Positions 29,831 through 64,000 of a DNA stretch of 64,000 nt are shown here, in pieces. Numbering within the stretch: the first letter of the stretch is position 1; every line of letters starts with the position of its first letter. The notes below the pieces were generated by a model. That model ran no database searches and was not told where the DNA came from. It saw nothing but the letters and a program-made list of their open reading frames with translations. The DNA is taken from NCBI GenBank assembly GCA_012295275.1, contig CM022665.1, positions 124,001-188,000 of the forward strand, given 5' to 3'. A program made the position numbers and the translations under genes. Origin of the DNA: Chrysomallon squamiferum (lineage: Eukaryota > Animalia > Mollusca).

Positions 29831-30033
29831 TTATAATAAAAATGTGCAGAAACAGATTAACAAGACAGCTCTCACAGTGGCTTGGATTATCTCTCTACAA
29901 ATTGGACATCTTTGCAATCTGGGCGCACAATCTTCACAGCAACAAAGACGACCGCAAGGCAGGAAAACTATTCTGACCTTGTTTTCAAGACAAACTTTGC
30001 AGATGATTTCCTCATTATCATCCGGCAAGGAAT
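29831..30033 (-). CDS. IAP terminal exon: RING finger
   Basis: Acceptor ttaacag| then (D)SLPDDNEEIICKVCLENKVRIVFLPCGRLCCCEDCAPRLQRCPICREIIQATVRAVLLICFCTFLL*. Matches the IAP RING pattern CKVC...vvFLPCGH...C..CA..L..CPICR, with H replaced by R. Confidence 0.93.
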
Positions 30034-32167: not shown

Positions 32168-32346
32168 CTCCACTTCATTTTCATTCATTTCTTGGACCAA
32201 ATCAACAAAATTGTCTCCCTTCACCTGTCTGATGAAATCGCATTGTGAAAACCATCTGGCGTGTTCCACGTAAGGGTTATCTCCCTGCATCTAATTTCTA
32301 AGTCCTCCACCGCAGTAAAAGCAGGACGTGCTATCACGTGAATTAC
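32168..32346 (-). CDS. C-terminal half of second BIR domain, with in-frame TAG at the conserved Trp
   Basis: cacag| (G)NSRDSTSCFYCGGGLRN*MQGDNPYVEHARWFSQCDFIRQVKGDNFVDLVQEMNENEVE |gtaact; CxxC...H...C zinc ligands are intact. Confidence 0.92.
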
Positions 32347-33145: not shown

Positions 33146-36141
33146 CAGAGAAGAAAAAATCGGCTTCTGCCAGTTCTCTCAGAGACTGGTTGTCAGGATG
33201 TGGCCATTGTTGTTCAAAAGACGAAATACGTCTTTGTACGTCGACGTAGTCGCTGTGACGTGCTGCATGCAATGTTGGGGCTGATGTAGAGAAGCTTCCA
33301 GACAGAAAACCGGACAGCTGAAGGATTGGTAAATTACTGAGACTGAGCTGTGAAGAACTTTGATGAGAATCATTAGAGGCAACAGCACCACCACTGACAG
33401 AACTCTCACCGGTAAAAGAAGGAACTGCAGAATTATCAGGAAGTGAAACAGTAGTTGTAGCCATATCACTGGTACTAACAGTAGATGTAGATGTAACAGT
33501 GCTTGAGGGCATACTACAAATATTACCAGTAAATGTACGCATACAGCTGGTATTAGTAGCTGATACCTCAGTACCAGTCAAACTAACAGCAGATATGTCA
33601 ATATTTTCATGACCAACAGAGGTAACGATGTCATCGACATTATTTCTTAGAGACTCCAAACAGTTCATTTTCACTAACTGAACTTTCAGACTCGCTCCGA
33701 TTACGAAGTGTTTCACTTTGAATAGCAGAAAATTCCGATACTGGTACTGTTAATCTGCCCAGGAATTCTTGTAGTCTCTGCTCAGCATTCTCACTTACCC
33801 GAATCGGTTTACTTTCTTCCTCTCCCAGGACAAATCTGCAGCTTGGAGAGGTTTGTCTGTGAATTTCCATTGGGTTATCTGCAGGTCTCCAGTGATCATA
33901 GCTCTGACCACAGCTGAAGCAGACAACGAGATCACCAGTCCCAGTGAAGTAGAATCCAGCAGCTGCAAGACGACTTGGCCAAGCTGAGTTTAGAGGACAT
34001 CGTAAGTAAGACGCATATCGGTCCCACTCCCTCCTGTATCTGACACTGTCTGAAGGTTCTGTCCATAATTCATCACTTCTCAGCTGTTCTGTCTCTTCAC
34101 TTCTCAGCTGTTCTCTCTCTTCACTTCTCAGCTCTTCTGTCTTATCACTCAACTGTTCTGTCTCATCACTTCTCAGCTGTTCTGTCTCTTCACTTCTCAG
34201 CTGTTCTATCTCTTCACTTCTCAGCTGTTCTCTCTCTTCACTTCTCAGCTCTTCTGTCTTATCACTTCTCAGCTGTTCTGTCTCTTCACTCAACTGTTCT
34301 GTCTCATCACTTCTCAGCTGTTCTGTCTCTTCACTCAACTGTTCTGTCTCATCACTTCTCAGCTGTTCTGTCTCTTCACTTCTCAGCTGTTCTGTCTTAT
34401 CACTCCTCAGCTGTTCTGTCTCTTCACTCAACTGTTCTGTCTCATCACTTCTCAACTGTTCTGTCTCTTCACTTCTCAGCTGTTCCCTCTCTTCACTTCT
34501 CAGCTGTTCTATCTCTTCACTTCTCAGCTGTTCTATCTCATCACTTCTCAGCTGTTCTGTCTTATCACTTCTCAACTGTTCTGTCTTACCACTTCTCAGC
34601 TGTTCTGTCTCTTCACTTCTCAGCTGTTCTGTCTCACCACTTTTCAGCTGTTCTGTCTCTTCACTTAACTGTTCTGTCTCATCACTTCTCAACTCTTCTC
34701 TCTCATCACTTCTCACCTGTACTGTCTCTTCACTTCTCAGCTGTTTTGTCTCATCACTTCTCAGCTGTTCTGTCTCTTCACTTCTCAGTTGTTTTCTCTC
34801 TTCACTTAACTGTTCTGTCTCATAACTTCTCAACTGTTCTGTCTCTTCACTCAGCTGTTGTGTCTCTTTAATCAACTGTTCTCTCTCATCACTTCTCAAC
34901 TGTTCTCTCTCTTCACTCAGCTGTTCTGTCTCATCACTTCTCAGCTGTTCTGTCTCTTCACTCAGCTGTTCTGTCTCATCACTTCTCAACTGTTTGTCTC
35001 TTCACTCAGCTGTTCTGTCTCTTCACTCAACTGTTCTGTCTCTTCGCTCAACTGTTCTGTCTCATCACTTCTCAACTGTTCTGTCTCATCACTTCTCACC
35101 TGTTATGTCTCTTCACTCAACTGTTGTGTCACTTCACTCAGCTGTTCTGTCTCTTCAGACAACTGTTCTGTCTCTTCACTCAACTGTTCTGTCTCGTTAC
35201 TTCTCAGCTGTTCTGTCTCATCACTTCTAAACTGTTCTGTCTCATCACTTCTAAACTGTTCTGTCTCTTCACTCAACTGTTCTGTCTCATCACTTCTAAA
35301 CTGTTCTGTCTCTTCACTCAACTGTTCTGTCTCATAACTTCTAAACTGTTCTCTCTCATCACTTCTCAGCTGTTCTGTCTCATCATTTCTCAGCTGTTCT
35401 GTCTCATCACTTCTCAACTGTTTGTCTCTTCACTCAGCTGTTCTGTCTCTTCACTCAACTGTTCTGTCTCTTCGCTCAACTGTTCTGTCTCTTCGCTCAA
35501 CTGTTCTGTCTCATCACTTCTCAACTGTTCTGTCTCATCACTTCTCACCTGTTCTGTCTCTTCACTCAACTGTTGTGTCACTTCACTCAGCTGTTCTGTC
35601 TCGTTACTTCTCAGCTGTTCTGTCTCATCACTTCTAAACTGTTCTGTCTCATCACTTCTAAACTGTTCTGTCTCATCACTTCTAAACTGTTCTGTCTCTT
35701 CACTCAACTGTTCTGTCTCATCACTTCTAAACTGTTCTCTCTCATCACTTCTCAGCTGTTCTGTCTCATCATTTCTCAGCTGTTCTGTCTCATCACTTCT
35801 CAGCTGTTCTGTCTCATCACTTCTCAGCTGTTCTGTCTCTTCACTTCTCAACTGTTCTTTCTCATCACTTCTCAGTTGTTCTGTCTCATCACTTCTCAGC
35901 TGTTCTGTCTCATCACTTCTCAGCTGTTCTGTCTCATCACTTCTCAACTGTTCTCTCTCATCACTTCTCAACTGTTCTGTCTCTTCACTCAGCTGTTCTG
36001 TCTCTTCACTCAGCTGTTCTGTCTCTTCACTCAACTGTTCTGTCTCTTCACTCAGCTGTTCTGTCTCTTCACACAACTGTTCTGTCTCATTACTTCTCAG
36101 TTCTTCTCTCTCATGACTTCTTAATGATCGTTTTTCCGTAA
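33146..36141 (-). CDS. Large exon: acidic repeat, BIR1, Ser/Thr-rich linker and N-half of BIR2 (frameshifted)
   Basis: Acceptor atctgcag| (V)TEKRSLRSHEREELRS...; BIR1 LAAAGFYFTGTGDLVVCFSCGQSYDHWRPADNPMEIHRQTSPSCRFV; BIR2 start YVDVQRRISSFEQQWPHPDNQSLRELAEADFFFS |gttagt. Length 2996 nt is not a multiple of 3. Confidence 0.88.
34072..36120 (-). repeat. Coding minisatellite of interspersed 24-nt (LRSDETEQ) and 21-nt (LSEETEQ) units
   Basis: Plus-strand units ctgttctgtctcatcacttctcag and ctgttctgtctcttcactcaa repeated over ~2 kb. Confidence 0.97.
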
Positions 36142-36929: not shown

Positions 36930-36934
36930 CATAC

Positions 36935-37021
36935 CTGGTTTAATCATCATAAGAACTCTATACAATGCATAACAAATAATCAGTATTGCAGAGGTCAAGT
37001 CTTTCACTTCCATCACTAGGT
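36935..37021 (-). CDS. 87-nt phase 1-1 exon with hydrophobic segment
   Basis: aataacag| LVMEVKDLTSAILIICYALYRVLMMIKP |gtatgt; only the phase-1 frame is open. Confidence 0.6.
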
Positions 37022-37538: not shown

Positions 37539-37569
<31 letters not shown>

Positions 37570-37718: not shown

Positions 37719-39094
37719 CTGCAATTTTCAGTAACATAAATACAGATAAACATTTCTGCTGCTGTCGAGTAATATTTCTGGCGTTTTACGGCACTAAAAA
37801 CTATTTACAAATTTTCACTAAAAAAGTCACTAAAATTAATATGAAAGCAGATAATTGTATCGGTTGATTTTCTTGTCTTGTCTTAACATCAGTGGAGTGT
37901 GGGTGACCCTCTTTCCAGGAAGCTGTTTAGCATTGTAAAAAATACTACTGACATTTTATAACAGCAAATATTTATTCACAAATTTTCCATTTGATATCTT
38001 GAATCTGATAAACTATACAAGATATTAAAATTAATACGTATCCATATTTTATGAATCAAATTTATATCACTCGATTTTCTGTTTCATATCTTGAATCTGA
38101 TAAAATATAAAAGATATTAAAATTAATACAAATTTATATGACTCGTCTTTCTTTCATTATCACAAAATCACTATGTTTTTGGTGACTAGAGAAATCAGAA
38201 AACGACGTTGTAACAAAAGGATACTTTTATACATTTATTAGAAGTATCTACCTAACGTATTTCCTAACTACTCAAACACAAGAGTGTTCTATAGATTAAA
38301 AACTAATCACATGAATACATTTTTATATTATCAAAAAATTAAAGAAACGCAAGGAGGCTGATTCTTACAAGATTTCGTGTTAAGTATTACTTGCCTGACA
38401 TGTTTCTTTGCTTCAAAACAAGTGAACAATTTCTCAGTTCACAGTTTGTCACTATGTCATTTCTGTCTGCAGTGATGTAATTAAAAATTAATTCTAGTGT
38501 AACCTGAAAGCGTGCTTTGTTATAATTGTATACTGGAAACCTGTTTTGAACATGTGCGTAATATTATTAATGTAAATTACGATTGTCATCAATTAGCACC
38601 AATCTAGAAAATTCTGATACCAGTATTTGCTGTTTGACAGCCATGTTCACATGTCATTGCTGACTTACTAAAACTCTTAGATAAACATGTACTGTACATT
38701 TCAATACATGTGAATGTATAATTAAGATACATTCAAAGTCTCTGAAATATTTACTAATCTTATTTTAAATATGTTGATACTGTTTTGATTTTATTAAGTT
38801 ATTTATAACTTGGCAAAATATGTTGAATATTTGTATTAAATTTCAAAGTAAGAACATTGATGTTCAAACGAATCTGTTCACAGATGAAAATTTATTGTTT
38901 ATGCGTTGCATGATGTTTTTACGACAGTAAAATAGAAAACGTATTTCTCGTAACTTACCGCTGAAATTACTAAACTAAGTCAGTTTATCATGATTACATT
39001 CAGTTTATAAATTACAACTTATCAAACAAAAATATTCCGTTCTTTCATCATAGTCACGAATTTAGTTAAACTAACAAAGTTTATAATTATGTAC

Positions 39095-39301
39095 CTGAAT
39101 TACTCCTGTATATTACTTGTTCTTCATGAAACGCCTGTTGATTGATCATCCATTTCATTTCCTGATGCTCATCCCTTAGATTAGCAATTTCATTAACCGT
39201 TTTAAAAATAATATCAGTGGAGTGTAGATCATCTGGGCGAGTTCTAGCATTGTCAAATAATAACACTGACCTTACATTTTGGTCAGTTTGATATCCTGGA
39301 T
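39095..39301 (-). CDS. 207-nt phase 1-1 exon
   Basis: ttttttag| (D)PGYQTDQNVRSVLLFDNARTRPDDLHSTDIIFKTVNEIANLRDEHQEMKWMINQQAFHEEQVIYRSNS |gtacat; open; ends in RSNS like the type-B exons. Confidence 0.75.
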
Positions 39302-40702: not shown

Positions 40703-40783
40703 CTAATCGTCTTCTTATGTTAATTCTTGATGATGTTTCAGAGGAGTCAGATAGCAAGTCCCCCAGTTCAAAAAAATATCTTC
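40703..40783 (-). CDS. 81-nt type-A variable exon
   Basis: catattacag| (G)RYFFELGDLLSDSSETSSRINIRRRL |gtaaat; same flanks as 61160-61228 and 62919-62996. Confidence 0.7.
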
Positions 40784-41851
40784 CTGTAATATGAAATTAA
40801 CAAAAACATTTTAAACTTAACATCAGTCCAGTGTGCGTGCACCTCCTTCCATGAAGACTCTTTACCAATGTAACATAATATCACTGACATTTTATAGCTG
40901 TAAGTATTTTTCATAAATTTTCTGTTCGATATCTTGAATTTGATAAAATATAAAATGTATTAAAATTAATACAAATTTATATGACTTGTCTTTCTTTCTT
41001 TATCGGAGAAAGTCACTGACTAGTTTACTTCATTCCTCAAGGAAACAATGGAGTCCTTTGATATGAATTAATCCTGTGCAAAATAATTAAATACACTGTG
41101 ATCTACCTTTTCAGGAAATATTTTAGTCCGTTGTTTGAAGTAGAAGTTTCGGTTAATCAAACAGAGAAAGTATAAACCAAAGAATAATACTAAAAATATG
41201 TATTACTGGTATTAGTAATTAATTAAATACTCTTGGAATGCTGATGCAAGTAAATAATGAAAATTAAAATATGAAAGTAACAACCGTTCATCAGTTTAAC
41301 AGAAACTACGTTGATTCATGATAACTGCAAAAGACATTCAGGAAATAATTACGTATCTAAAGCCCAGCATCCTTTGCTCTCCTGGAGAAATTTCTCTTCT
41401 GATGGAAATCCTAGAGACGTAGTTTCAGTAACGTAAATAAATATAAACATTTCTACCATTGTCAAGTATTACCAATGCCTTTATATGCCAGTAAAATGTA
41501 CTTACAACTTTTCAGTAATATAATCACTAAAACTAATACGAATGCTCATATTTGTTTTGGTTGATTTTCTTTCTTTACTTCAAGTTTTCACTTTGACAAA
41601 CTGATAAACATTTGTTGAGAAGACAATGAATACAACCGTATATGAGACTTAAAACTGCTGTTTTTAAAAGTCTTTGTGTTGTTAAGCAATGCATGTGTAA
41701 ACTGTTTCAACGAAAAGGTGAGAAAACCATTTTATACGAATGCTATACTTCTAAATGTTTTTTAGAACTTTGTCCATAACCTATTTTGTAACTACTCATA
41801 CATAGTCGTATTTTAATACGTAAAATCCAAACACAAAAACAAAAGACGTAC

Positions 41852-42017
41852 CATCAGATGATCTTTCAGAGGAGTCAGATAGCAAGTTCATCAGTGCAAA
41901 ATTTCTTTCTCTAATATGAAATTTAAAAAAATATATTTTAAACTTAACATCAGTGCAGTGTGCGTGCACCTCCTTCCATGAAGACTCTTTACCACTGTAA
42001 CATAATATCACTGACAT
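41852..42017 (-). CDS. Candidate first coding exon (chimeric type-A / MSD-donor exon)
   Basis: MSVILCYSGKESSWKEVHAHCTDVKFKIYFFKFHIRERNFALMNLLSDSSERSSD |gtacgt; acceptor cttacag about 7 nt upstream of the ATG; shares LLSDSSE with 40703-40783. Confidence 0.45.
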
Positions 42018-42239
42018 TTTATAGCTGTAAGTATGTTTCATAAATTTTCTGTTCGATATCTTGAATTTGATAAAATATAAAATATATTAAAATTAATACA
42101 AATTTATATGACTTGTCTTTCTTTCTTTATCGGTTAAAGTCACTGACAAGGTTACTCAATTCCACAAGGAGCCAACGAATTCTTTGATATGAATTAATCA
42201 TGTGCAAAATAATTCAATACACTGTGATCTAGCTTTCCA

Positions 42240-45171: not shown

Positions 45172-46210
45172 CTAAACAGACAGCGGGATGTATATACCAA
45201 CAGTACCCTGAAGTGCTCTATGCCAGCCCTCCATCAAGTAGTTTGTACTAGGTAGTCCTTGTACAACTCTGTCATGGATGAACCAAAGAGTGAAAACAAA
45301 CACCAGATCACTTCTCTGTCCTCGTCTGCCTGGTTGACCAATCAAAGTGTCTTCAAAATAGTTGAACAGACCGGTCATGTTATCCGGAATGTCATCCTGA
45401 ATGGTTTCAAAGACTTGAATAATGTTTTCAGCAGGTACAAAGGCTAAGGCCTCAGCTTCTTACACTTAAGACGTACCTGCTCATTATCACGATAGGCTTC
45501 AAGCAGATTCTCTCTCTGAATTTTTCTCCAAATACACTGGCCCAAAAGAAATAAGAACCCAGCAAGATGAACTTGTAGACAAAACACCTCTTGCACTGCG
45601 TTGTGAAAAGCCTTCTCAAAATCACACGTGACAGAAGTTGGTTGCATATTTTCTTTCATTGCATAAATAGCTTCAAAAGCTCTTCTATACACGGCCTGTG
45701 TTTTTCCTTGGAGGAAGATGTACAGCACTGGTAACACAGTCCCACTTTTCTTTGTACAAATTGTTGTTAACTGACAGAAGCAACAAGATGCAATTTTGAA
45801 AGTTCCATCAGCAAACCAGTCACCATTAGTAGCCAAGTATTCGAGATTTTTTTTTGTGTTCCAAAGATGAAGAATCTTTCAGGGTCATGTGCACCAGAGT
45901 CATGTAGCAGAAATTTGTCTCCTCTCATAGTTTTTTTTTTTTTTTCAGCATTTCTGGAATGTTAATTTCACTGACAGTTCTTGGAATTGGCACAGGTTCA
46001 CCATCCAACTTCCTTTTCCTCTCAATCATTCTTTCAATGGATGTATATTTTGGAAGTTGAGCAACAGCTTGCCGTTGCTGAATCAAAAGTCACGGTGTAT
46101 CTTGAGAAGTTGCAGATCTCTGCTGAATTGTAGACACTGCTTCACTTCAGTTTCCGCCACCTTTGGTACAATGACTGTGCACAGTAGCATCTCTGTTATG
46201 AACTCTACAA
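45172..46210 (-). mobile_element. Decayed Mutator/MULE (DDE) transposase fragment
   Basis: WFADGTFK...LPVLYIFLQGKTQAVYRRAF...CDFEKAFHNAVQEVF...GQCIWRKIQ and LPSTNYLMEGWHRAL are typical MULE motifs; broken by stops and frameshifts; the CxxH motif is degenerate; no TIR or TSD seen. Confidence 0.88.
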
Positions 46211-47099: not shown

Positions 47100-50000
47100 A
47101 TTTTGCTGCAGAATTACAAACACCATGACAACATTTCTAGGAAATCCACCAACATTTCCATTAATGAGGCCAGAGATCTTTCTGTGACATCTTTGAAAAG
47201 ACTAAAGAGGGTTTCCAGGGACATCCAAATTTTTTTTTAAAAATGAAGAAATTCATTTGCCTAACTTCTAAGTTCCTACAGATGAAAAAAAAAGAATTAA
47301 AATATTAAGAATAATAACAAATTCAGTAATAACATGGAAATATTTTAATGGGGAAACAGATTAGCTTCTCCAACATGAAATTAATTTAAACCATTTGAAA
47401 CCCTGTCTTGTTTGCTTGTTCCTCAGTCATGATTATTATTTTATTTCTAACCCCTCTCTACCCTCCCTATCCCCCAATATATAATATTATTGAAATATAT
47501 TAATTCAGCTTCTATAAATATTAAAAACAAATTTTTAAATAATTATCAGATTATTGAATTTTGTAGTCTGTTAAAATATTATTATTTTTAATATTTATTT
47601 ATTAGTTTGTTTGTTTGTTTATTATTTGAATATATTAATTTACACTTACTTTTTTCTTACATTTAAAAGATAACTGAAAGTTAAATAGTTGGCCTTGAGT
47701 GAGTGTGTGTTTTAGTATGCGTGTGAGTTCTTGTTTTATAACGAAAGCTACATTATTTTTATTTATTTTTTTATTTAATATTGAGTGATAATTAATAGCC
47801 TGACTTGAAATTAAAATTGAGGAGTAAATTGCAGATATATAATCATAAAGTTACAAAGGAAAAAAAAACAACAAAAGACAACACAACCTAAAAACCTCTC
47901 CAGTTTTATAAATACTTTAATCCAAGGAATCAAAGAACTTAAAAAAAGATAGCCATTGACACAGAAAGATTAAATATAAAAAGTATTGTAAGACTGGCAT
48001 TTCCAAAGAGGACAAACTGACCCAGGTTTATGGCAACAACACTAATGACCCTGAATAAACCATCGGTTACATTAAATAAATACAAATTGTAACAAACATA
48101 TTAGTTCTCGGTTTTCAATAAAATCAAAACTGGAATGAATTTCAAAGTTGAAGTTACAAACTTAAACCTTTTTAGCAGTAAACCAACTTATTTCAAACTT
48201 ACCATGGCAAAACTGTTGCCAGTCCATAATCTGCACCAGACCAGTGAACACTCTGGATTCAGCAATGTCTGACTGTGTACAGCTAAAACCTGCGAGAGAA
48301 AAAATCTCAAAGTAAGGGAAGTAATAATTACAACTTTACAATACTAATATTTGTAAAAAAAAAAAAAAAAAAAAAATCCGTATTTTAATTTTAAATACCA
48401 TATTTAAAAACATATTGCATAATGTGCAAATATAAATATTTAAATCATATCAATAAATACTGAATGTTAACTAAAAATTAAAAATTAATTCCTATCAGTA
48501 AGTATTAAATTAATAAACATTACCAAAAATTCAAATTTATGATTGTAATAAGAAATCTTACACTGAAAATGTATTCACAAATAAATAATGATTATATACT
48601 GAATACTTCTAAATGTTAAAAATATCATATCGTAGTCACAGTTGCCTATCTAAAACAATGGAAATCAAATATGAATATTCATTATTAAATATTAATCAGT
48701 TATAAAAAGGGAGTACAAGGGAGGACTTACAGGGTCTGGAGATTCACAAACTGCTAATGGCTGCCTATCTGTTCACCTTTCACTGGATTCATCATCATCA
48801 TCATCATCAACACTGTCTGTAACTTTAATCATTCTGTGATGCACACATTGTTGATGTTGCAGAACATAAAAACATGTTTGTAAATCTTCTCAAACAGCTC
48901 ACAGCACTACCTGCAGTGTAATGTTTATTTTTTTACTGTTAGTTAGAATAGTCTTTCTGTTTGTTTGTAATACCTAAACCATTTTCTCATTCAATAAATG
49001 TGTATCCTGAGAAAAACTAAAAATTTTAAAATATACTGATGCAATGTTACAATTACACACTTTCTGCTATCTCAGCTATTCCAATATCACTGCTAATACT
49101 GTTCTATAGTAGCAGCAGATGGGGACAGGACCATCAGAAAATGGCCTGCTGACAGCCTATAAATAGATTTCTGAGCATAAATCTTTTTTGATGATGTTCT
49201 GTAAACATTTCTATGTATCCTTGCTTTTGAAAATTTAATTTCTATTAAGTAATTAACCATAAGCATCTCCAATATTCTTGTGAAAAAAGTTTAAAATTTG
49301 CCTTACAAAGTCATCCAAGTAGGCTTAGCAGGTGAATGATTTTTTTAATAAAAATATAAGCAAATTGGTACATTTTTCAGCATCTGAAATTGCCATAACT
49401 CCTTCAATTTTCCAAGATATTTAAAAAAATGTCAATTTTGGGTCTCATGTTTTTAGATTCTTAAGGCTCTAACCAATGAAACAGAACATTTTCTGGTATA
49501 TTGGAACCAATTTTTTTTGTAACATACTTATAATCTTGTGCTTTAAATGAGTTTAAAGAAAACATTTTTTTATTTTATTTAATTTTTTTATATCAGATAC
49601 TAAAAAAAAAATAATAAATGCTTCTATTTCAACCTTCAGTTTTGATAACATTAGAACATGAAACTAAGTCATAAGTTTAATAAATTAAGATAGCTCAATT
49701 ACCCAAATCCCTGCCCATGACACAAACATCCTGTCCATGGATACCAAGTTCTCGGGGTAACCAGCTTTCACCTTTTTTTACCTGAAAACTGTCATAATCT
49801 GTAACAGACAGAAATACAATTTTATTATTCAGGTATTAATTAACTGGGTATTTTATAATATTAATTACTTGTACAAGACATGCTGCTTGTCTAGATTAAA
49901 AGATGTTAAAGTTGTCTCTTAAACCAGACTTGTATTCAGTAACTGTTAGGTTTTTTTACAGTTTAAAAAATAAATAATAATAATGTCAGTTTTCAAACCT

Positions 50001-51666
50001 TGACACACAACTGCAGATGGTACACAACTGATTCTAATATTCACATTCAATTCATACATATACTTCTTTTCCTACATTTTTGTTTACTTTCAAAACAATG
50101 CTTCATGGCAAAAAGTATAAATAAACCTAATGATTGTAATTATTACAAACATTTTAAAAACAAATATGTTGTTCAGCTTTATTCTGAAAACACAGACCAT
50201 GAAATATAATTTAGAACCTGAAAGTTTATAAATAAAAATGGTTTTAAATGTATTTTCTTTTCACTGTTACCAAGTAACACATCATCAAATAGTGATCAAG
50301 ATTAGAACTATTAATAAAGTTCCAGTGTCACTTCTTGGGATATAGAAATGTTCGAAACACATATTTAAATAATCAAAACTTTTATTTTTATCCCTTTCAA
50401 TGTAACATTCTTATTATTTTTTTAAATAAAATTTTTGTAGGGTTTATTTCAAGATTACCATTAAAAAATTAAAATAATAAAACATCAAAAGCAATAACCG
50501 TTTAATACATATCTGGTTCTCCTGTTTAAAACTGAAACAATAAAATAACATTTTGTTTAAAAGTGAAAAAATAAATAGAAATTTTGTTTAATATTTTAAA
50601 GGATATTGCTACTTTTGTATATAAAACATGTTACAGTTTGGTAAATGCTGCAAACTAATAGTATTAGTAGTATCATTAGAAAACTGATTATGGTATACAA
50701 TTTCTGTCAGTTCTGATTTCTTGTTTATTTATATATATGACACACTTACCTCACTGTCCAGGGAAACATGGTTATATTTTTTCACCCTGAAATGATTTTC
50801 TACCTGGAACACCAGGAGTTCCTGGAAAACCATTATCAGCAGGATGGCCATGAATGATGGTTCAGTTTAAATACAGGTGACATCATATCACCAGCAGCAA
50901 ATAAAAATAAAAATGTTGAAGAAAGATTTCCACTTTCAGCAACAACAGTCAGTTTCTGAAATACTGAACACAGAAAAAACTGAGATGTTTAAACTGAGAT
51001 ATATATATATATATAAATAAAAAACACAAACACATAGTATAAAATATGAAACATAATGTAGATGAACATTAAAAGGAAACATTTTAACAGCTGTGAAATA
51101 TTAATGATTAAACCTGAAAAAATAAAACATGGAAACGACTCAGTTGAATACCAGTATACCGTGTAACATAGAGTTACATTTAAAAAACTTGTTACAGTTA
51201 AAATGAAATATGAAAATTACAAATTTAAAATTGTATCATCTCAGCATTATGAAGAAATATGTAACAGCTAATGTCATAAAATATTAAAAGTTATCAAAAG
51301 ATGTAATTAGTTACATGTTCTGACTGAAATATTTAAACAGTTATAAAATAACAATTTATATTACAAAAACAGATTTCTTAACAGATAATATGCAGGATTT
51401 GAAATAGCCAGTCGCCAGGTTTCCAAATTTCCGTTTAAGGCGACTGGGATGTTAAAAATAATTATGGGTTAATCGCCCAAAAAATATTATTTTGGGTGAC
51501 CTCTTTTTTTCTACAAGTTATAACACAGTAGCCACTATTAATAATTTTATCGCAAATATTTATTTCATGTAAAAGGTTTGCTTATAGCTCGATAAGTTTG
51601 CTTACCTTTAATTTGCCAACATCTGAAATAAAGGCAGCGAACAATTCCAGCCGCTGTGAAATCCAT
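47100..51666 (-). pseudogene. Decayed multi-exon gene with collagen-like Gly-X-Y remnants
   Basis: NGFPGTPGVP at about 50804-50834; 49703-49781 reads KKGESWLPRELGIHGQD, with every third codon Gly or one change from Gly; GEK...FPGQ at 50750-50786; exon-like blocks with good splice signals at 51606-51666 (ATG...|gtaagc), 48731-48910 and 48203-48289. Confidence 0.45.
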
Positions 51667-52516
51667 GAACAGAAACTCCAGCGAACAGTTTATCGCACGT
51701 CAGTTCTTTCAAACAAATAGTTCGCAATTTCAATAATTGTTTATACTTCTAAGGTATAAAATATATTCATTTTATTATAAAATAAAGTATATGGGTTTCA
51801 GAACTATAGCAAAAATAAAATTTCAGATATATAATGCAATTTATTTAATAAATATGATGTTTGTTATATATTATTCCGCATCGGACATATTGTTCGGTAG
51901 CTCAGTAGATGCCTTTCAGGAAAATCAAATTTATAATATCTGTTTATTCTATTCTGAAAATTTAATAAACAAAAAAAAAAAAATAAAAATAAAAATAAAA
52001 TAAAATAATACATTCAGCGTATCAGATTCCAGTCGTTCCTTTTCAAGAATGGTTGTTAAAAGCAGTATGAACCAATGAACTTTTTAAAATAAAAATAGGA
52101 AAATCATTGTTTGCATGCATAATAGTACAGGTTTTAGAAAATGAATGCTTTTTTCATTTTTATTTTTTTTAAGGAAAAAAGAGCGAAACATTAATTTTAA
52201 CTAATTTTGTTTTAGTTTTTGTTCTAAAAGTGGTATCAAGCATTATAATGTAGGTATCAATGCAATCATTCAAATAACACGTGATCAATTTGCTTTTAAC
52301 ATTTATATCTACTAAATACGACCTTTAATGTATTTTCTCAAGTTTCGTTATCATTTTACAGTAACTGATTGTACCTCTCTCTTTGAATGAGTACATTCTG
52401 CACTGATTTAATTTTGATAAATGAAATGCATTTTGTTGTTTGATTATAAAGACAGGGTGTTTAGATTTCTCATACTGTAATTTTTATTTATTTATTTATT
52501 TTTGTGCATTTCACAT

Positions 52517-52805: not shown

Positions 52806-53005
52806 NNNNNNNNNNNNNNNNNNNNNNNNNNNNNNNNNNNNNNNNNNNNNNNNNNNNNNNNNNNNNNNNNNNNNNNNNNNNNNNNNNNNNNNNNNNNNNN
52901 NNNNNNNNNNNNNNNNNNNNNNNNNNNNNNNNNNNNNNNNNNNNNNNNNNNNNNNNNNNNNNNNNNNNNNNNNNNNNNNNNNNNNNNNNNNNNNNNNNNN
53001 NNNNN
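52806..53005. other. Assembly gap (200 N)
   Basis: Run of exactly 200 N. Confidence 0.99.
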
Positions 53006-53925: not shown

Positions 53926-53988
53926 CTGAATTAGACCTCTGTTCCGCTCTTTCTGATTTGGAAATGGCTGTCGACTGTAGTTGTACTT
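53926..53988 (-). CDS. Type-B 63-nt exon, copy 5
   Basis: aattacag| (E)VQLQSTAISKSERAEQRSNS |gtacat. Confidence 0.7.
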
Positions 53989-55281
53989 CTGTAATTTAAG
54001 TAACGTAAATAAAGTTAAATATTTCTAGCATAGCTGAGTAGTATCAATGGCTATTTATGCCAGTAAACATTATATACCACTTTTCACTAATATAAATCAC
54101 TAAACTAATACGAATTTTTCATATTTGTTTTGCTTGTTTCTCTTTCTTAGCTGGATGTTTTCACTTCGACAACCTCATAAACATTTCCTGGGAAGACAGT
54201 GAATACTAACCCATGTGAGACTGTAAAAACTGCTGTCTTTAAAAGTTTTTGTGTTGTTAGTTACAGCTTACTAAATGTTTCACCGAAAAAGTGCGAAAAC
54301 CACTTTGTAACAAAGATATACTTCTAAACGTTTTCTAGAAGTATTTAGTAACTACTCATAAGTAGTCAATATTAATACGTAAAATCAAACATCAGACACT
54401 GAAGTAAAGTAACAACAATTTATAGGTTAATTATTACACACTTGGATAAATATATTCGTTGCAAATCATGTAGATAAGAATTATCTGTTCTGACTGTCAC
54501 TGTGACACCTCTGTTTGCAATGTTGTAATGGAAATCAAAGTTAATTCTAGCGTAGTCTGACTGCGCGTTCTGCTAAATTGTAAACTACAAAGCTGTACTG
54601 AAAGTTTGTATGTTATTACTCATGTAAATGAAGCTTCTCATAAATATCAACAATTCAAAGGCGATATTCAGTCCTGACATTAAGCAGCTACATCCACATG
54701 TCACTGCTGAATTAAAAACACTGTAAGATATACATTTTCTATAAATTTCGAAAGATGTGAATGTATAATTAAGGTAATTTTAGGTATCAGAGTTGACTTG
54801 AAAACAAAATAGACAATGAAAAAGAAACCCTTAAGACTCCTCAAGTGAGACATCGTTCCAAAGCCCGATTTAGACAGTTGTGTTCTTCTTAAAAAGCTTA
54901 ATTGCTGCTGAATTTACTGAGCTAGCAGTTTGATGTGATATCCTTCTGTTTATAAATTACAACTTATCAAACAAAATTTTGTGTTCTTTCATTACATCTG
55001 AGAAATCTTTAAACTAGGCATATTTACTAAAGACAACCTTATGCTTTTTATAATTTTATATGTATACAAAGTTCAGATTGTCTTCTCTACTAAAAACATA
55101 GAATAAACTATAAACGAAAGCCAAATGCTAAACATATGCATTAATGGTGTTAATAATTAATTTTGACTAATATATGCAAATAATTAGATTTCTGTTTAAA
55201 GACAACAAAGTGGCACCCATACACAAGAATGTAATTTGCTTTATCATAGCTAGAGAAGAAAGTTAACAAATAATTATGTAC

Positions 55282-55344
55282 CTGAATTAGACCTCTGTTC
55301 CACTCTTTCTGATTTGGAAATGGCTGTCGACTGTAGTTGTACTT
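55282..55344 (-). CDS. Type-B 63-nt exon, copy 4
   Basis: aattacag| (E)VQLQSTAISKSERVEQRSNS |gtacat. Confidence 0.7.
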
Positions 55345-56654
55345 CTGTAATTTAAGTAACGTAAATAAAGTTAAATATTTCTAGCATACCTGAGTAGTAT
55401 CAATGGCTATTTATGCCAGTAAACATTATATACCACTTTTCACTAATATAAATCACTAAACTAATACGAATTTTCATATTTGTTTTGCTTGTTTCTCTTT
55501 CTTAGCTGGATGTTTTCACTTCGACAACCTCATAAACATTTCCTGGGAAGACAGTGAATACTAACCCATGTGAGACTGTAAAAACTGCTGTCTTTAAAAG
55601 TTTTTGTGTTGTTAGTTACAGCTTACTAAATGTTTCACCGAAAAAGTGCGAAAACAACTTTGTAACAAAGATATACTTCTAAACGTTTTCTAGAAGTATG
55701 TACCTAACTAGAAGTATTTAGTAACTACTAATACATAGTCAATATTAATACGTAAAATCAAACATCAGACATGGAAGTAAAGTAACAACAATTTATAGGT
55801 TAATTATTACACAGTTGGATAAATATATTCGTTGCAAATCATGTAGATAAGAATTATCTGTTCTGATTGTCACTGTGACACCTCTGTTTGCAATGTTGTA
55901 ATGGAAATCAAAGTTAATTCTAGCGTAGTCTGACTGCGCGTTCTGCTAAATTGTAAACTACAAGGCTGTACTCAAAGATTTTATATTATTACTCATGTAA
56001 ATGAAGCTTCTCATAAATATCAACAATTCAAAGGCGATATTCAGTGCTGACATTAAGCAGCTACATCCACATGTCACTGCTGAATTAAAAACACTGTAAG
56101 ATATACATTTTCTATAAATTTCGAAAGACGTGAATGTATAATTAAGGTAATTTTAGGTATCAGAGTTGACTTGAAAACAAAATAGAAAGTGAAAAAGAAA
56201 CCCTTAAGACTCCTCAAGTGAGACATCGTTCCAAAGCCCGATTTAGACAGTTGTGTTCTTCTTAAAAAGCTTAATTGCTGCTGAATTTACTGAGCTAGCA
56301 GTTTGATGTGATGTCCTTCTGTTTATAAATTACAACTTATCAAAAAAAAATTTGTGTTCTTTCATTACATCTGAGAAATCTTTAAACTAGGCATATTAAC
56401 TAAAGACAACCTTATGTTTTTCATAATTTTATATGTATACAAAGTTCAGATTGTCTTCTCTACTAAAAACATAGAATAAACTATAAACGAAAGCCAAATG
56501 CTAAACATATGTATTAATGGTGTTAATAATTAATTTTCACTAATGTAAGTAAATAATTAGATTTCTGTTTAAAGACAACAAAGTGGCACCCATACACAAG
56601 AATGTAATTTGCTTTATCATAGCTAGAGAAGAAAGTTAACAAATAATTATGTAC

Positions 56655-56717
56655 CTGAATTAGACCTCTGTTCCACTCTTTCTGATTTGGAAATGGCTGT
56701 CGACTGTAGTTGTACTT
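56655..56717 (-). CDS. Type-B 63-nt exon, copy 3
   Basis: aattacag| (E)VQLQSTAISKSERVEQRSNS |gtacat. Confidence 0.7.
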
Positions 56718-58027
56718 CTGTAATTTAAGTAACGGAAATAAAGTTAAATATTTCTAGCATAGCTGAGTAGTATCAATGGCTATTTATGCCAGTAAACATT
56801 ATATACCACTTTTCACTAATATAAATCACTAAACTAATACGAATTTTCATATTTGTTTTGCTTGTTTCTCTTTCTTAGCTGGATGTTTTCACTTCGACAA
56901 CCTCATAAACATTTCCTGGGAAGACAGTGAATACTAACCCATGTGAGACTGTAAAAACTGCTGTCTTTAAAAGTTTTTGTGTTGTTAGTTACAGCTTACT
57001 AAATGTTTCACCGAAAAAGTGCGAAAACCACTTTGTAACAAAGATATACTTCTAAACGTTTTCTAGAAGTATCTACCTAACTAGAAGTATTTACTAACTA
57101 CTCATACGTAGTCAATATTAATACGTAATATCAAACATCAGTCATGGAAGTAAAGTAACAACAATTTATAGGTTAATTATTACACACTTGGATAAATACA
57201 TTCGTTGCAAATCATGTAGATAAGAATTATCTGTTCTGACTGTCACTGTGACACCTCTGTTTGCAATGTTGTAATGGAAATCAAAGTTAATTCTAGCGTA
57301 GTCTGACTGCTCGTTCTGCTAAATTGTAAACTACAAAGCTGTACTGAAAGTTTGTATATTATTACTCATGTAAATGAAGCTTCTCATAAATATCAACAAT
57401 TGAAAGGCGATATTCAGTGCTGACATTAAGCAGCTACATCCACATGTCACTGCTGAATTAAAAAAAACTGTAAGATATACATTTACTATAAATTTCGAAA
57501 CATGTGAATGTATAATTAAGGTAATTTTAGGTATCAGAGTTGACTTGAAAACAAAATAGAAAGTGAAAAAGAAACCCTTAAGACTCCTCAAGTGAGACAT
57601 CGTTCCAAAGCCCGATTTAGACAGTTATGTTCTTCTTAAAAAGTTAATTGCTGCTGAATTTACTGAGCTAGCAGTTTGATCTGACATCCTTCACTTAGAA
57701 AATTACAACTTATCAAACAAAATTTTGTGTTCTTTCATTACATTTCAGAAACTTTAAACTAAGTATATTAACTAACGATAGTATTATGCCTTTAATAACT
57801 TTATATGTATATAAAGTTCAGATTCTCTTGTCTCTATTAATAAAATATAATAAACTATAAACGAAAGCCAAATGCTAAACATATATGTTAATCGGGTTAA
57901 TAATTAATTTTCACTAATGTAAGTAAATAATTAGATTTCTGTTTAAAACAACAAAGTGACACCCATGCACAAGAATGTAATTTCCTTTATCGTAGCTAGA
58001 GAAGAAAGTTAACAAATAATTCTGTAC

Positions 58028-58090
58028 CTGAATTATACCTCTGTTCCACTGTTTCTGATTTGAAAATGGCTGTCGGCTGTCGTTGTACAT
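58028..58090 (-). CDS. Type-B 63-nt exon, copy 2
   Basis: aattacag| (D)VQRQPTAIFKSETVEQRYNS |gtacag. Confidence 0.7.
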
Positions 58091-59422
58091 CTGTAATTTC
58101 AGTAACGTAGATAAAGATAAACATTTCTCGCATTGTCGAGTATTATCACTGGTTTTTTATGCCAGTAAAAATTATGTACAAGGTTTCACTAATATAAATC
58201 ACTAAAACTAACAGGAATGTTCACATTTGTTTTGCTTCATTTTCTTTCTTAGCTGGATGTTATCACTTTGACAGTCTGATAACCATTTCGTGAGAAGACA
58301 ATGACTACTACCCCATATGAGACTTTAAAAACTGCTGTCTTTAAAAGAATTTGTGCTGTTAGTTACAGCTTACTAAATGTTTCAGCGAAAAAGTGAGAAA
58401 ACCTCTTTGTAACAAAGATATACTTCTAAACGTTTTCTAGAAGTATCTAACTGACCAGAAGTATGTAGTAACTACTCATACATAGTCTATATTAATATAT
58501 AAAATCGAAACACAAAAATAAAACGTCGTACCATCAGACATGGAAGTAAAGTAACAACAATTTATGGGTTAATTATTATACAGTTGGATAAATATATTCG
58601 TTGGAAATCACGTAGATAAGAATTATCTGTTCAGTCTGTCACTATGACCTCTGTTTTTGCAATGTCGTAATGTAAATCAAAGTTAATTCTAGTGTAGTCT
58701 GACTGCTCGTTCTGCTAAATTTTTAACTAAAAAGCTGTACTGAAAGTTTGTATGTTGTTATTGATGTAAATGAAGTTTGTCATAAATATCAACAATTCAA
58801 AGGCGATATTCAGTGCTGACATTAAGCAGCTACATCCACATGTCAATGCTGAATTAATAAAACTGTAAGATATACATTTCCAATAAACTTCGAAATATGT
58901 GAATGTATAATTAACATACGTAAAGGTATCAGAGTTGACTTGAAAACAAAATAGACAATGAAAAAGAAATCTTTAAAACTCCTCATGTGAGACATCGTTC
59001 CAAAGCACGAATTAGTCAGTTATGTTCTTCTTAAAAAGTTAACTGCTGCTGAATTTACTGAGCTAGCAGTTTGATCTGACATCCTTCACTTAAAAAATTA
59101 CAACTTATCAAACAAAATTTTGTGTTCTTTCATTACATTTCAGAAACTTTAAACTAAGTATATTAACTAACGATAGTATTATGCCTTTAATAACTTTATA
59201 TGCATATAAAGTTCAGATTCTCTTGTCTCTATTAATAAAATAGAATAAAGTATAAACGAAAGCTAGATGCTAAACATATATGTTAATCGGGTTAATAATT
59301 AATTTTCACTAATGTAAGTAAATAATTAGATTTCTGTTTAAAACAACAAAGTGGCACCCATGCACAAGAATGTAATTTGCTTTATCATAGCTAGAAAAGA
59401 AAGTTAACAAATAATTACGTAC

Positions 59423-59485
59423 CTGAATTATACCTCTGTTCCACTCTTTCTGATTTGGAAATGGCTGTCAGCTGTCGTTGTACAT
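59423..59485 (-). CDS. Type-B 63-nt exon, copy 1
   Basis: aattacag| (D)VQRQLTAISKSERVEQRYNS |gtacgt. Confidence 0.7.
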
Positions 59486-59728
59486 CTGTAATTTCAGTAA
59501 CGTAGATAAAGATAAACAATTCTAGCATAGTTGAGTATATCACTGGTTTTTTATGCCAGTAAAAATTATATACAACTTTTCATTAATATAAATCAATAAA
59601 CTAATAAGAATTTTCATATACTGAACTAACAGTTTGTTCTGAGATCATCAGTTTATAGATTACAACTTATCAACAAAATGCTGTGTACTTTCATTACAGC
59701 TGAGAAATCATAAAACCAACAATTTTAT

Positions 59729-59806
59729 CTGAATGACCTCCGAAGATAATTCCTTGGCCATTTCTATAGATGTCATGGATCGGGACCATCTGTTTGAATC
59801 TTTTTG
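59729..59806 (-). pseudogene. 78-nt type-A variable exon with donor GT->AT
   Basis: catcttacag| (A)KRFKQMVPIHDIYRNGQGIIFGGHS |ataaaa; the frame is open but the donor is non-canonical. Confidence 0.6.
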
Positions 59807-61159
59807 CTGTAAGATGAACTTAAAAAAAAACATTTTAGTTTAACATCAATCCAGTGTGTGTGCACCTACTTCCAGGAAGTCTCTTTACCAATGTAACATA
59901 ATACCACTAACATTTTATAGTTGTAAGTATTTTTCATAAATTTTTTGTTCGATATATTGAATTTGATAAAATATAAAAGATATTAAAATTAATACAAATT
60001 TATATGACTTAAAAGACATTCAGGAAATAATTACGTATCTAAAGCCCAGCATCCTTTGCTCTCCTTGAGAAATTTCTCTTGTGATGGAAGTCCTACAGAT
60101 GTAGTTTCAATAACGTAAATAAAGATAAACATTTCTAGCATTGACAAAGTGTTACCAATGCCTTTATATGCCAGTAAAATTTACTTACAACTTTTCAGTA
60201 ATATAAATCACTAAAACTAATACGAATGCTCCTATATATTTTGGTTGATTTTGTTTCTTTACTGCAAGTTTTCACTTTGACAAACTAATAAACATTTTTT
60301 GAGAAGACAATGAATACAACCGAATATGAAACTTTTAAAACTGCTGTGTTTAAAAGTCTTTGTGTTGTTAGTGATGGCCAACTGTTTCAACGAGAAGGTG
60401 AGAAAACCATTTTATAAAAATTATATACTTCTAAATCTTGTTTAGAACTTTGTCCGTAACATATTTTGTAACTACTCATACGTACTCGTATTTTAATATC
60501 TAAAATCAAAACAGAAACATAAACTCATACCTTCAGTCGTGAAAATAAAGTAAGAGCAATTTATATATGCTAATTATTACATACTTGGATAAATATATTG
60601 TTTGCAAATCATGTAGATAAGAATTATCACTGTGATTACAGCATGTTACCATGACATCTCTGGCTGCAATATCGTAATGCAAATCAAACTTAATTCTAGT
60701 GTAGCCTGACTGTTCGTTCCTCTGAAGTTTAAACTACAAAGCTGTATTGAAAGTTTGTATGTTGTTATTGATGTAAATGAAGCTTGTCATAAATATCAAG
60801 AATTCGCAGGCGATATTCAGTGCTGACATTAAGGAGCTACATCCACATGTCACTGCTGTATTAATAAAACTGTAAGATATACATTTCCTATAAATTTAAT
60901 AATTAAGATACATTTAAAGCTGCAGACATTAGTTGAAAACAAAACAAACAATTAAAAAGAAATCTTTAAAACTCCTCAAGTGAGACATCGTTCCAAAGCA
61001 CGAATTTAGACAGTTGTGTTCTTCTTGAAAAGTTAATTGCTACTGAATTTACTGAACTAACAGTTTGTTCTGATATCATCAGTTTATAGATTACAACTTA
61101 TCAACAAAATGCTGTGTACTTTCATTACAGCTGAGAAATCATAAAACCAACAAATTTAC

Positions 61160-61228
61160 CTGAATAACGTGGGATGTCAATTTCTTCATAGATGCTATTC
61201 AACCAGTGCACTTGTTTTAATGGTATTA
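61160..61228 (-). CDS. 69-nt type-A variable exon
   Basis: catattacag| (V)IPLKQVHWLNSIYEEIDIPRYS |gtaaat. Confidence 0.75.
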
Positions 61229-62918
61229 CTGTAATATGAAATTAAAAAAAACATTTTAGTTTAACATCTGTACAGTGTGTGTGCACCTACTTCCAGGAAG
61301 ACTCTTTGCCAATGTAACATAATACCACTAACATTTTATAGATGTAAGTATTTTTCATAAATTTTTTGTTCGATATATTGAATTTGATAAAATATAAAAG
61401 ATATTAAAATTAATACAAATTTATATGACTTGTCTTTCTTTCTTTATCGGAGAAAGTCACTGACAAAGTTACTCAGTTCCTGAAGGAGATAACGAATTCC
61501 CTTAATATGAATTAATCCTGTGCAAAATAATTAAATACACTGTTGTCCAGCTTTCCAGGAAATATTTTAGTCGGTTGTTTGAAGTAGAAGTTTCGGTTAA
61601 TCAAACAGAGAAAGTGTAAACCAAAGACTAACACAAAAAATATATATTACTGGTATTAGTAATTAATTAAAAACTCTTTAAATGCCGATGCGAGTAAATA
61701 ATTGTTGTTTAGCTTAAAATATCAAAGTAACACCCGTTCATCAGAAACTACTTTGATTCATCAGAACTGCAAAAGACATTCAGGAAATAATTACGTATCT
61801 AAAGCCCAGCATCTTTTGCTCTCCTTGAGAAATTTCTCTTCTGATGGAAGTCCTACAGATGTAGTTTCAATAACGTAAATAAAGATAAACATTTCTAGCA
61901 TTGTCAAGTATTACCAATGCCTTTATATGCCAGTAAAATTTATTTACAACTTTTCAGTAATATAAATCACTAAAACTAATACGAATGCTCCTATATATTT
62001 TGGTTGATTTTGTTTCTTTACTGCAAGTTTTCACTTTGACAAACTAATAAATATTTGTTGAGAAGACAATGAATACAACCGTATATGAAACTTTTAAAAC
62101 TGCTGTGTTTAAAAGTCTTTGTGTTGTTAGTGATGGCCAACTGTTTCAACGAGAAGGTGAGAAAACCATTTTATAAAAATGATATACTTCTAAACCTTGT
62201 TTAGAACTTTGTCCGTAACATATTTTGTAACTACTCATACGTACTCGTATTTTAATATCTAAAATCAAAACAGAAACATAAACTCATACCTTCAGTCGTG
62301 AAAATAAAGTAAGAGCAATTTATATATGCTAATTATTACATACTTGGATAAATATATTGTTTGCAAATCATGTAGATAAGAATTATCAGTGTGTTCACAC
62401 TATGTCACCATGACATCTCTGGTTGCAATGTCGTAATGTAAATCAAACTTAATTCTAGTGTAGCCTGACTGTTCGTTCCTCTAAATTTTAAACTACAAAG
62501 ATGTATTGAAAGTTTGTATGTTGTTATTGATGTAAATGAAGTTTGTCATAAATATCAACAATTCAAAGGCGACATTCAGTGCTGACATTAAGGAGCTACA
62601 TTCACATGTCACTGCTGTATTAATAAAACTGTAAGATATACATTTCCTATAAATTTAATAATTAAGATACATTTAAAGTTGTATACATTAGTTGAAAACA
62701 AAACAAACAATTAAAAAGAAATCTTTAAAACTCCTCAAGTGAGACATCGTTCCAAAGCACGAATTTAGACAGTTGTGTTCTTCTTGAAAAGTTAATTGCT
62801 GCTGAATTTACTGAACTAACAGTTTGATCTGAGATCATCAGTTTACAGATTACAACTTATCAACAAAATGCTGTGTACTTTCATTACAGCTGAGAAATCA
62901 TAAAACCAACAAATTTAC

Positions 62919-62996
62919 CTGAATCATGTAGGATGTTAATTTCTGATGCTCTTGCATAGGGGTTATTGAACAGGAACCTCTGTGTTAGTGTTTCTG
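62919..62996 (-). CDS. 78-nt type-A variable exon
   Basis: catattacag| (A)ETLTQRFLFNNPYARASEINILHDS |gtaaat. Confidence 0.75.
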
Positions 62997-64000
62997 CTGT
63001 AATATGAAATTAAAAAAAAAATTTTAGTTTAACATCAGTCCAGTGTGCGTGCACCTACTTCCAGGAAGATTCTTTACCACTGTAACATAATACCACTAAC
63101 ATTTTATAGTTGTAAGTATTTTTCATAAATTTTTTGTTCGATATATTGAATTTGATAAAATATAAAATATATTAAAATTAATACAAATTTATATGACTTG
63201 TCTTTCTTTCTTTATCGGAGAAAGTCACTGACAAAGTTACTCAGTTCCTGAAGGAGACAATGAATTCCTTTGATATGAATTAATCCTGTGCAAAATAATT
63301 AAATACACTGTTGTCCAGGTTTCCACGAAATATTTTAGTCGGTTGTTTGAAGTAGAAGTTTCGGTTAATCAAACAGAGAAAGTGTAAACCAAAGACTATC
63401 ACAAAAAATATATATTACTGGTAATAGTAATTAATTAAAAACACTTTAAATGCCGATGCGAGTAAATAATTGTTGTTTAGCTTAAAATATCAAAGTAACA
63501 CCCGTTCATCAGAAACTACTTTGATTCATCTGAACTGCAAAAGACATTCAGGAAATAATTACGTATCTAAAGCCCAGCAGCCTTTGCTCTCCTTGAGAAA
63601 TTTCTCTTCTGATGGAAGTCCTACAGATGTAGTTTCAATAACGTAAATAAAGATAAACATTTCTAGCATTGTCAAGTATTACCAATGCCTTTATATGCCA
63701 GTAAAATTTATTTACAACTTTTCAGTAATATAAATCACTAAAACTAATACGAATGCTCCTATATATTTTGGTTGATTTTGTTTCTTTACTGCAAGTTTTC
63801 ACTTTGACAAACTAATAAATATTTGTTGAGAAGACAATGAATACAACCGTATATGAAACTTTTAAAACTGCTGTGTTTAAAAGTCTTTGTGTTGTTAGTG
63901 ATGGCCAACTGTTTCAACGAGAAGGTGAGAAAACCATTTTATAAAAATTATATACTTCTAAACCTTGTTTAGAACTTTGTCCGTAACATATTTTGTAACT

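Follow-up and report, generated by a model that had tools for sequence, protein, structure and literature searches.

In Dscam, a surface protein, tandemly duplicated exons are used in a mutually exclusive manner and encode parts of Ig domains. Here we analyse a tandem array of small, hypervariable exons in a 64,000-nt stretch of the genome of the mollusc Chrysomallon squamiferum (assembly GCA_012295275.1, contig CM022665.1, positions 124,001 to 188,000 of the forward strand; this whole stretch is called the window and is numbered from its first letter). The window also contains, downstream of the micro-exons and on the same (minus) strand, a gene of the inhibitor of apoptosis protein (IAP) type. 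The micro-exon array is real, spliced and positively selected. In contrast to the Dscam exons, neighbouring exons are co-included, and their peptides match no known domain.

By analogy, the array resembles a variant of an architecture already known from SmPoMuc genes, micro-exon genes (MEGs) and venom genes. According to PMC2576457, these genes for polymorphic mucins of Schistosoma mansoni contain tandem repeats, about 1 kb long and >93% identical, each made up of a small exon plus the introns on either side; concerted evolution, exon variants and pseudogene members are described, and the system belongs to the host-parasite interface. In the window, too, an exon is repeated in tandem together with its flanking introns, and the identity of 96.4% passes the >93% of SmPoMuc. 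However, SmPoMuc has few exon types, which are said to be under purifying selection, whereas each hypervariable copy differs here and nonsynonymous divergence (dN) is above synonymous divergence (dS). The transmembrane-like exon and the IAP that follow here, and the host, likely a gastropod, are further differences, and the likeness is one of architecture.

MEGs, as portrayed in PMC4350168, have symmetric exons of very small size, a high dN/dS for the mature part and secreted or membrane-anchored products; they are restricted to platyhelminths, all encode a signal peptide, and owe their diversity to alternative splicing. The same source proposes VAL-6 as a MEG-VAL composite, a precedent for the fusion of micro-exons to a known domain. 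The array shares the small symmetric exons and the high dN/dS. However, the ratios of 2.5-5.6, which were obtained between paralogous exons, exceed the value of about 1.1 given for MEGs, the nearest proteins of the adjacent gene are from gastropods and not from platyhelminths, and alternative splicing was absent among the listed joints. In snake venom PLA2 and related toxin genes, conservation is far stronger in introns than in coding exons, and KA is near or above KS (PMC7285919). Those genes are whole-gene paralogues for folded, secreted toxins, whereas the units considered here are exon modules in a tandem array, and their peptides have no toxin-like fold or Cys pattern.

Hypervariable exons in near-identical introns

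The array consists of tandem exon-intron units on the minus strand (60011..64000) with a period of 1760-1768 nt and an identity of about 96%, and it exceeds the end of the window. Within the units, short patches are hypervariable. Two of these, Y1 (62919..62996, minus, 78 nt) and Y2 (61160..61228, minus, 69 nt), are micro-exons of phase 1-1 bounded by AG and GT. Y3 (59729..59806, minus, 78 nt) is an open copy with an AT donor, and Y5 (40703..40783, minus, 81 nt, phase 1-1) is found in a related unit at 40-42 kb. These patches had been proposed in a first-pass annotation made from the sequence alone, and its coordinates, lengths (78, 69, 78 and 81 nt), ttacag lead-in, open phase 1-1 frames and peptides were all reproduced. 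The proposed boundaries, ttacag and gtaaat, held for the acceptors but were wrong for one of the four donors, that of Y3, which reads CAG/ATAAAA. Similarly, the proposed unit length of about 1.76 kb agrees with the first exon spacing of 1768 nt, whereas the next spacing drops to 1422 nt, a loss of about 340 nt at the 60011/60010 junction having shortened the third unit.

Alignment of 64000-61771 with 62232-60011 revealed 79 mismatches in 2221 aligned bases (96.4% identity). When this alignment was scanned in sliding windows of 78 nt, the exon was the worst window with 22 mismatches, and the next-worst had 9. Y1 and Y2 differ at exactly 22 of 69 nt plus a 9-nt gap, and a single mismatch was found in the 78 nt following the donors of the 62919 and 61160 exons, both as predicted. 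The patches Y1, Y2, Y3 and Y5 are mutually 56-68% identical, their flanks 91-97%, and the difference between exon and flank divergence was highly significant in all six pairs (Fisher p 1e-9 to 1e-13). These results support the proposed reversal of the usual conservation of exons over introns. Dips of equal depth elsewhere, named in advance as an argument against it, were not found in the 2221-base alignment; in comparisons with the 40-42 kb unit, which is 12.5% diverged, the exon was still the worst window (23-26 of 78 nt), but intron windows came near (19-23). At the protein level, only 3-8 of 22-25 residues are common between copies. As a randomly mutated copy with 15-29 changes stays open 30-49% of the time, the open frames alone are weak evidence.

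An additional patch, Y4 (41852..41908, minus, 57 nt), is a derived copy of Y5, from which it differs by 6 nonsynonymous and 1 synonymous changes. It is open from a weak GAG acceptor, a deletion has fused it to another donor, and no splice of Y4 was seen in the RNA contigs.

The Y exons are supported as targets of diversifying (positive) selection, as had been suggested. Nei-Gojobori estimates of dN and dS were 0.49 and 0.20 for Y1-Y2, 0.73 and 0.13 for Y1-Y3, and 0.64 and 0.12 for Y2-Y3, corresponding to ratios of 2.5-5.6; these three pairs are mutually non-independent, and the sequences are few and short. The proportion of synonymous differences (pS) was 0.11-0.17, that of nonsynonymous differences (pN) 0.36-0.46, and one-sided Fisher tests for a nonsynonymous excess yielded p values of 0.12 (Y1-Y2), 0.008 (Y1-Y3) and 0.048 (Y2-Y3). 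Third codon positions accounted for 2 of 21, 3 of 29 and 3 of 24 differences, in the same order of pairs with binomial p values of 0.013, 0.004 and 0.020 for Y1-Y2, Y1-Y3 and Y2-Y3. A codon model applied to Y1-Y3 rejected omega=1 (likelihood ratio test 12.75, p=3.6e-4). A run of the codon model with genome base frequencies was set aside, since it gave an implausible omega of 150 and kappa of 24.

Homogenisation of the introns had been put forward as an alternative cause. Because pS is far below pN, it fails as the sole explanation of the pattern. The synonymous divergence of the exons modestly exceeds the intron divergence of 4% (p=0.02 for Y1-Y2, 0.15 for Y1-Y3), and, as it is near the intron level, selection is needed and conversion was at most a helper. 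A role of the introns as snoRNA or miRNA hosts is not supported as a cause of their conservation, as there were 0 Rfam matches at gathering thresholds.

Splicing in series and a second exon slot

RNA evidence was obtained from assembled contigs of four RNA runs, all from one study (X1-X4), and of one run of unknown kind (X5). The stretch 59400-64000 was examined in X1, X2, X4 and X5, and the stretch 36930-42400 in X1-X4. In X2, one contig (record 10; length 354 nt, depth 3.97) connects 62919 with 61228, the intron ends being GT..AG and the shorter side covering 81 letters; over 60977-61228 it shows 0 differences, and it continues into the intron. This joint was found in one of the three RNA runs and not in X5. 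As Y1 is spliced straight to Y2, neighbours are used in series, and the sole Y-to-Y joint seen, which includes both, argues against the mutually exclusive use that had been envisaged. A second contig of X2 (record 11, 628 nt, depth 5.95; one of four runs) leads from Y5 (40703) to 39301 and then from 39095 to 37021, with no differences on its two listed pieces. It passes the donor at 36935 and extends 5 bases into the next intron, the examined stretch having ended at 36930. Introns are often covered in these runs, and as each of the two contigs retains one, they have the appearance of nascent transcripts; the joints cannot be accounted for by DNA.

The predicted AG/GT sites were thereby found in use at 61228/62919, 39301/40703 and 37021/39095. 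No RNA joint touches Y3 (59806-59729) and there was no depth in its bin in any of the three RNA runs, an absence that is weak evidence and is not counted as proof of silence; judging from its changed donor, Y3 is probably a silenced exon. Rescue of AT donors by RNA editing was considered and rejected, as none of the listed joints uses such a donor. Skipping of a live exon was likewise not observed among the joints listed, although contigs drop rare forms. Among the loose contig ends listed, those that fall on Y boundaries, one in X1 (61165) and two in X4 (61224, 40784), lead into further sequences that are open in phase 1 by hand translation, and those at 61165 and 61224 are absent from the window. 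In X5, conserved Y flanks enclose about 79 letters of a contig that do not align, a length obtained by subtraction. These unlike sequences in X1, X4 and X5 indicate that the repertoire is larger than the copies of the window, alleles and paralogues being indistinguishable.

Each unit has a second exon-like slot besides the Y slot; the first-pass annotation mentions neither this slot nor the transmembrane-like exon described below. In Xd1 (63567..63620, minus, 54 nt) it is open and has an AT donor, and the identity of its copies (61852-61799, 60092-60039, 41410-41357) reaches 94-96%, as in the introns. The Y1-Y2 splice skips the copy at 61852. Because this donor-dead slot is as conserved as the introns in the very units that carry Y exons, it serves as an internal control for regional effects.

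In five related units, each about 1.37 kb long (53926..59485, minus), the second slot holds a 63-nt phase 1-1 exon with a GT donor. These live exons (59485, 58090, 56717, 55344 and 53988) are Ser/Thr-rich and mutually 89-100% identical, and may be stalk-like. The slot classes differ from one another by 33-47%, versus 15-30% upstream, which suggests that the same process acted in the second slot earlier. Loose contig ends in X1 and X4 join one second-slot exon to another (hand reading; one mapped).

A third class of second-slot exon lies at 37718-37656 (minus), and its acceptor is used in X4. By hand reading, a shifted donor would make it a symmetric exon of 63 nt, and read-through would hit a stop and give a form without the hydrophobic exon described below.

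A second, nested repeat family occupies 1-23400 and 42300-45100, with blocks that are 94-97% alike and share short segments with the array family. It has 23-nt exon-like slots with AG..GT or AG..AT ends, seven of which are listed (2 GT, 5 AT); the same G-to-A donor change recurs, and no comparable hypervariable exon was found in the four pairs scanned. Two gaps of 200 N (1290-1489 and 52806-53005) lie in or at the edge of repeat arrays, and the copy numbers are lower bounds.

From the array to the BIR-BIR-RING gene

The exons found upstream of the IAP part are all symmetric and of phase 1-1, with lengths of 57-87 nt and one of 207 nt. The 207-nt exon (39095..39301, minus) is joined on both sides in X2, and its second half is predicted to be one long helix: single-sequence AlphaFold placed a helix at residues 26-68, with a predicted local distance difference test score (pLDDT) above 90 over residues 31-60. 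A word-based protein search yielded no homologue, and there was no usable Atlas match. In an X4 contig, 12 other nucleotides stand in place of 90 nt of this exon (39121-39212), which shortens it by 78 nt in frame. A candidate exon of 72 nt (38395..38466, minus) is open and of phase 1-1; an X4 contig joins 38395 to 37718 via a GC-AG intron, and this GC donor is the only part of the exon seen in use. The last upstream exon (36935..37021, minus, 87 nt, phase 1-1) is transmembrane-like, with a 19-residue hydropathy of 2.04 and one Arg inside, and its acceptor is used in X2. Its donor, CAG/GTATGT, is in phase 1, and an in-phase acceptor follows 793 nt on at 36141, where a 245-codon frame opens in matching phase. 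Basic residues follow the hydrophobic helix, at the start of an acidic repeat.

The large IAP exon entered through this acceptor (33146..36141, minus) encodes an acidic 24-nt repeat, BIR1 (PF00653, E=2.4e-18) and the first half of BIR2, which is split over two exons. The second half of BIR2 (32168..32346, minus) contains an in-frame stop at 32293, and the RING exon lies at 29861..30033 (minus; PF13920, E=8.9e-13). As assembled, the IAP is broken in at least five places, unlike the intact reading frame expected of a BIR-BIR-RING IAP: stops occur at 35105 and 32293, and the frame changes near 35425, 34995 and 33650. Two deletions in its repeat region have one common context, which would fit a genuine lesion that was multiplied when the repeat expanded. 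The region 34070-36121 is a 2 kb tandem repeat with periods of 24 and 93 that encodes the acidic repeat directly before BIR1. The linker between BIR2 and RING (31659-30522, minus) contains three related exon-like copies, two of which (31481-31413, 69 nt, and 30596-30522, 75 nt) are open, of phase 1-1 and with GT donors, while the third (31659-31595) has a stop and no GT. Parts of the BIR exon are contained in five runs with a word share of 0.14-0.30; these low shares suggest expression of BIR sequences from diverged alleles or paralogues.

Attachment of the micro-exons to an IAP locus had been proposed and can be upheld only in part: an IAP-type gene does lie downstream on the same strand, but attachment of the 59-64 kb array to it is not supported. 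The scaffold gap at 52806..53005 separates the distal array from the IAP-proximal locus, with 10 kb of further sequence that includes a remnant of a MULE transposase (45175-46200, minus, broken, between the arrays; PF10551, E=1.2e-10). No contig leading from a micro-exon to a BIR exon was found among those examined in 59400-64000 and 36930-42400. We infer the link from gene order and exon phase.

The closest relatives of the IAP are from the gastropod Gigantopelta aegis (XP_041379548.1, XP_041354958.1 and XP_041350670.1), which are automatic gene models seen as proteins only. Among 150 BIR matches, two G. aegis proteins (P0034 and P0049) had the best single-domain scores, with 55-59% identity in BIR1; identity was 73-75% in the second half of BIR2 and 67% in the RING. 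All three have a low-complexity repeat before BIR1, as in the window, but theirs is a Ser/Asp repeat unrelated to the acidic repeat in the same place. Their N-terminal extensions comprise 64-196 residues, contain sequons for N-glycosylation and differ by indels of whole blocks, one of them 27 residues long. Comparison of the exon peptides with seven IAP N-termini stayed at chance level: of 70 comparisons, 2 had a shuffle p of 0.025-0.03. A hydrophobic 19-mer precedes the first BIR in 10 of the 150 matches. A word-based protein search with BIR1 (E<=1e-10, longer proteins only) gave no match, and metagenome scans with the flank motif and with BIR1 found no locus. IAPs are among the expanded families in G. 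aegis, according to PMC7895826. No transmembrane IAP was found in the literature searched: the main text of two IAP surveys (PMC13159474 and PMC8917759) does not contain "transmembrane" or "signal peptide", and their supplements, which list architectures, could hold a case.

Some further elements were noted. A candidate ATG exon (51666-51606, minus), whose frame ends in phase 1, is not signal-like. Small exon-like segments at 48203-51700 (minus) have strong donors near 51606, 50750, 49781, 48731 and 48203, and that at 48289-48203 (minus) is open in phase 1-1. A weak C2H2 zinc-finger-like frame (27758-27985, minus; E=0.005) is below the Pfam cut-off.

What the locus may encode

In the reading that we favour, with a probability of roughly 0.5, the modules encode the positively selected variable N-terminus of a membrane-anchored protein that was likely joined ancestrally to a BIR-BIR-RING IAP. 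Tandemly duplicated exon-intron modules, each with a symmetric phase 1-1 micro-exon and with neighbours spliced in series, would diversify at the amino acid level by positive selection, with intron identity kept at about 96%. Unequal crossing-over and some conversion would add or remove whole modules, phase symmetry would preserve the frame at any module number, and modules would be silenced via G-to-A at donor +1 (5 copies, two slots) and not by frameshift. The order of variable segments, Ser/Thr-rich repeats, helix, hydrophobic helix, basic residues, acidic repeat and BIRs could be understood as tip, stalk, membrane and cytoplasm. Hydropathy and the basic residues would fit an N-out topology, in which the variable N-terminus would likely face outward; the ancestral cytoplasmic part would likely be the BIR-BIR-RING IAP, and selection would likely come from a pathogenic or symbiotic microbe or from a self/non-self partner. 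Duplicated phase 1-1 exons in the BIR2-RING linker were counted in favour of this reading, as were the repeat before BIR1 and the N-terminal extensions of the three G. aegis IAPs. As the BIR part is broken in the assembly, the copy in the window may now make only the anchored front half. Because the 255+ letters after one second-slot exon in X2 are absent from the window, the 53-64 kb array probably belongs to a paralogue, the 3' exons of which would lie in the gap or elsewhere.

Several observations weigh against this reading. The continuation into those letters is itself one, and record 11 runs past the transmembrane-like exon into intron and not to the BIR exon. Each key joint is represented by one low-depth contig of one run, both contigs retain intron, and two of the three joints carry the flag "between: not known". 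The Fisher test for Y1-Y2 alone is not significant, the maximum likelihood omega is unstable (16 or 150), Y3 is hypervariable despite its dead donor, and hypervariability is lacking in the five live exons of the second slot. The putative transmembrane helix, assigned by hydropathy alone, contains an Arg, and no start or signal-peptide exon was found within the window, whose end the array exceeds. A strong hydrophobic segment is present in only one of the three G. aegis paralogues (2.22, 1.42, 0.36), and no G. aegis N-terminus resembles the upstream exons in sequence.

Some of these points would suit a separate gene for a small surface or secreted protein, MEG-like or mucin-like, with its end at the hydrophobic exon or shortly behind it, the IAP pseudogene being only a neighbour or a long-lost tail. 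Read-through of the 36935 donor, as in record 11, would give a longer hydrophobic tail with a stop near 36840, the IAP is broken, no contig connects micro-exons with BIR exons, and the gap cuts off the distal array. However, the CAG/GTATGT donor is good and matches the phase of an acceptor that follows after 793 nt, record 11 also retains a 5' intron and thus looks nascent, the intron after 36935 contains one ATTAAA and no AATAAA, and the G. aegis relatives do have long N-terminal extensions; we consider such a gene doubtful. It is unlikely that the variable segments form the intracellular N-terminus of an IAP in an arms race with viral or microbial antagonists or partners, the helix being an organelle anchor or not spanning a membrane. 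That no signal peptide was found, the Arg inside the helix, the absence of transmembrane IAPs from the main text of the two surveys and the absence of a hydrophobic segment from G. aegis P0034 would fit, whereas a hydropathy of 2.04 followed by basic residues fits N-out, the G. aegis N-termini contain sequons, and selection is strongest on the most distal modules.

Two further explanations concern the array itself. Old neutral or non-coding exons might have been kept apart while conversion homogenised the introns, or the exons might be a mutation hotspot. In line with this, exon pS is above the flank value of 0.04, significantly for Y1-Y2 only, and the sequences are few and the alignments short. 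However, age or a hotspot would load third positions at least equally, and these carry only 10-13% of the differences; with the rejection of omega=1 and the in-frame splicing of the exons, the absence of positive selection is largely refuted and very improbable. The tandem, homologous, symmetric exons with near-identical flanks would also suit a Dscam-like cassette with one Y exon per transcript, but Y1 is spliced directly to Y2, and second-slot exons are joined to each other at the loose ends, which leaves this the least credible explanation.

The favoured reading, a variable membrane-anchored N-terminus ancestrally joined to an IAP, can be extended tentatively to a gastropod receptor family, in which a hypervariable ectodomain of variable copy number is connected via one transmembrane helix to a BIR-BIR-RING ligase; the IAP itself could then possibly be a recognition receptor that decides on cell survival upon contact with microbes or symbionts. 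If the BIR-BIR-RING link is true, this would be an IAP architecture for which no match was found in the searched literature, and it would provide a testable reason for the expansion of IAPs in these snails. Modules with a dN/dS of 2.5-5.6 in introns that are 96% identical mark a molecular arms race and point at a recognised or recognising surface. Even without the IAP link, the array would be a mollusc counterpart of the schistosome micro-exon and SmPoMuc genes that is missed by homology annotation.

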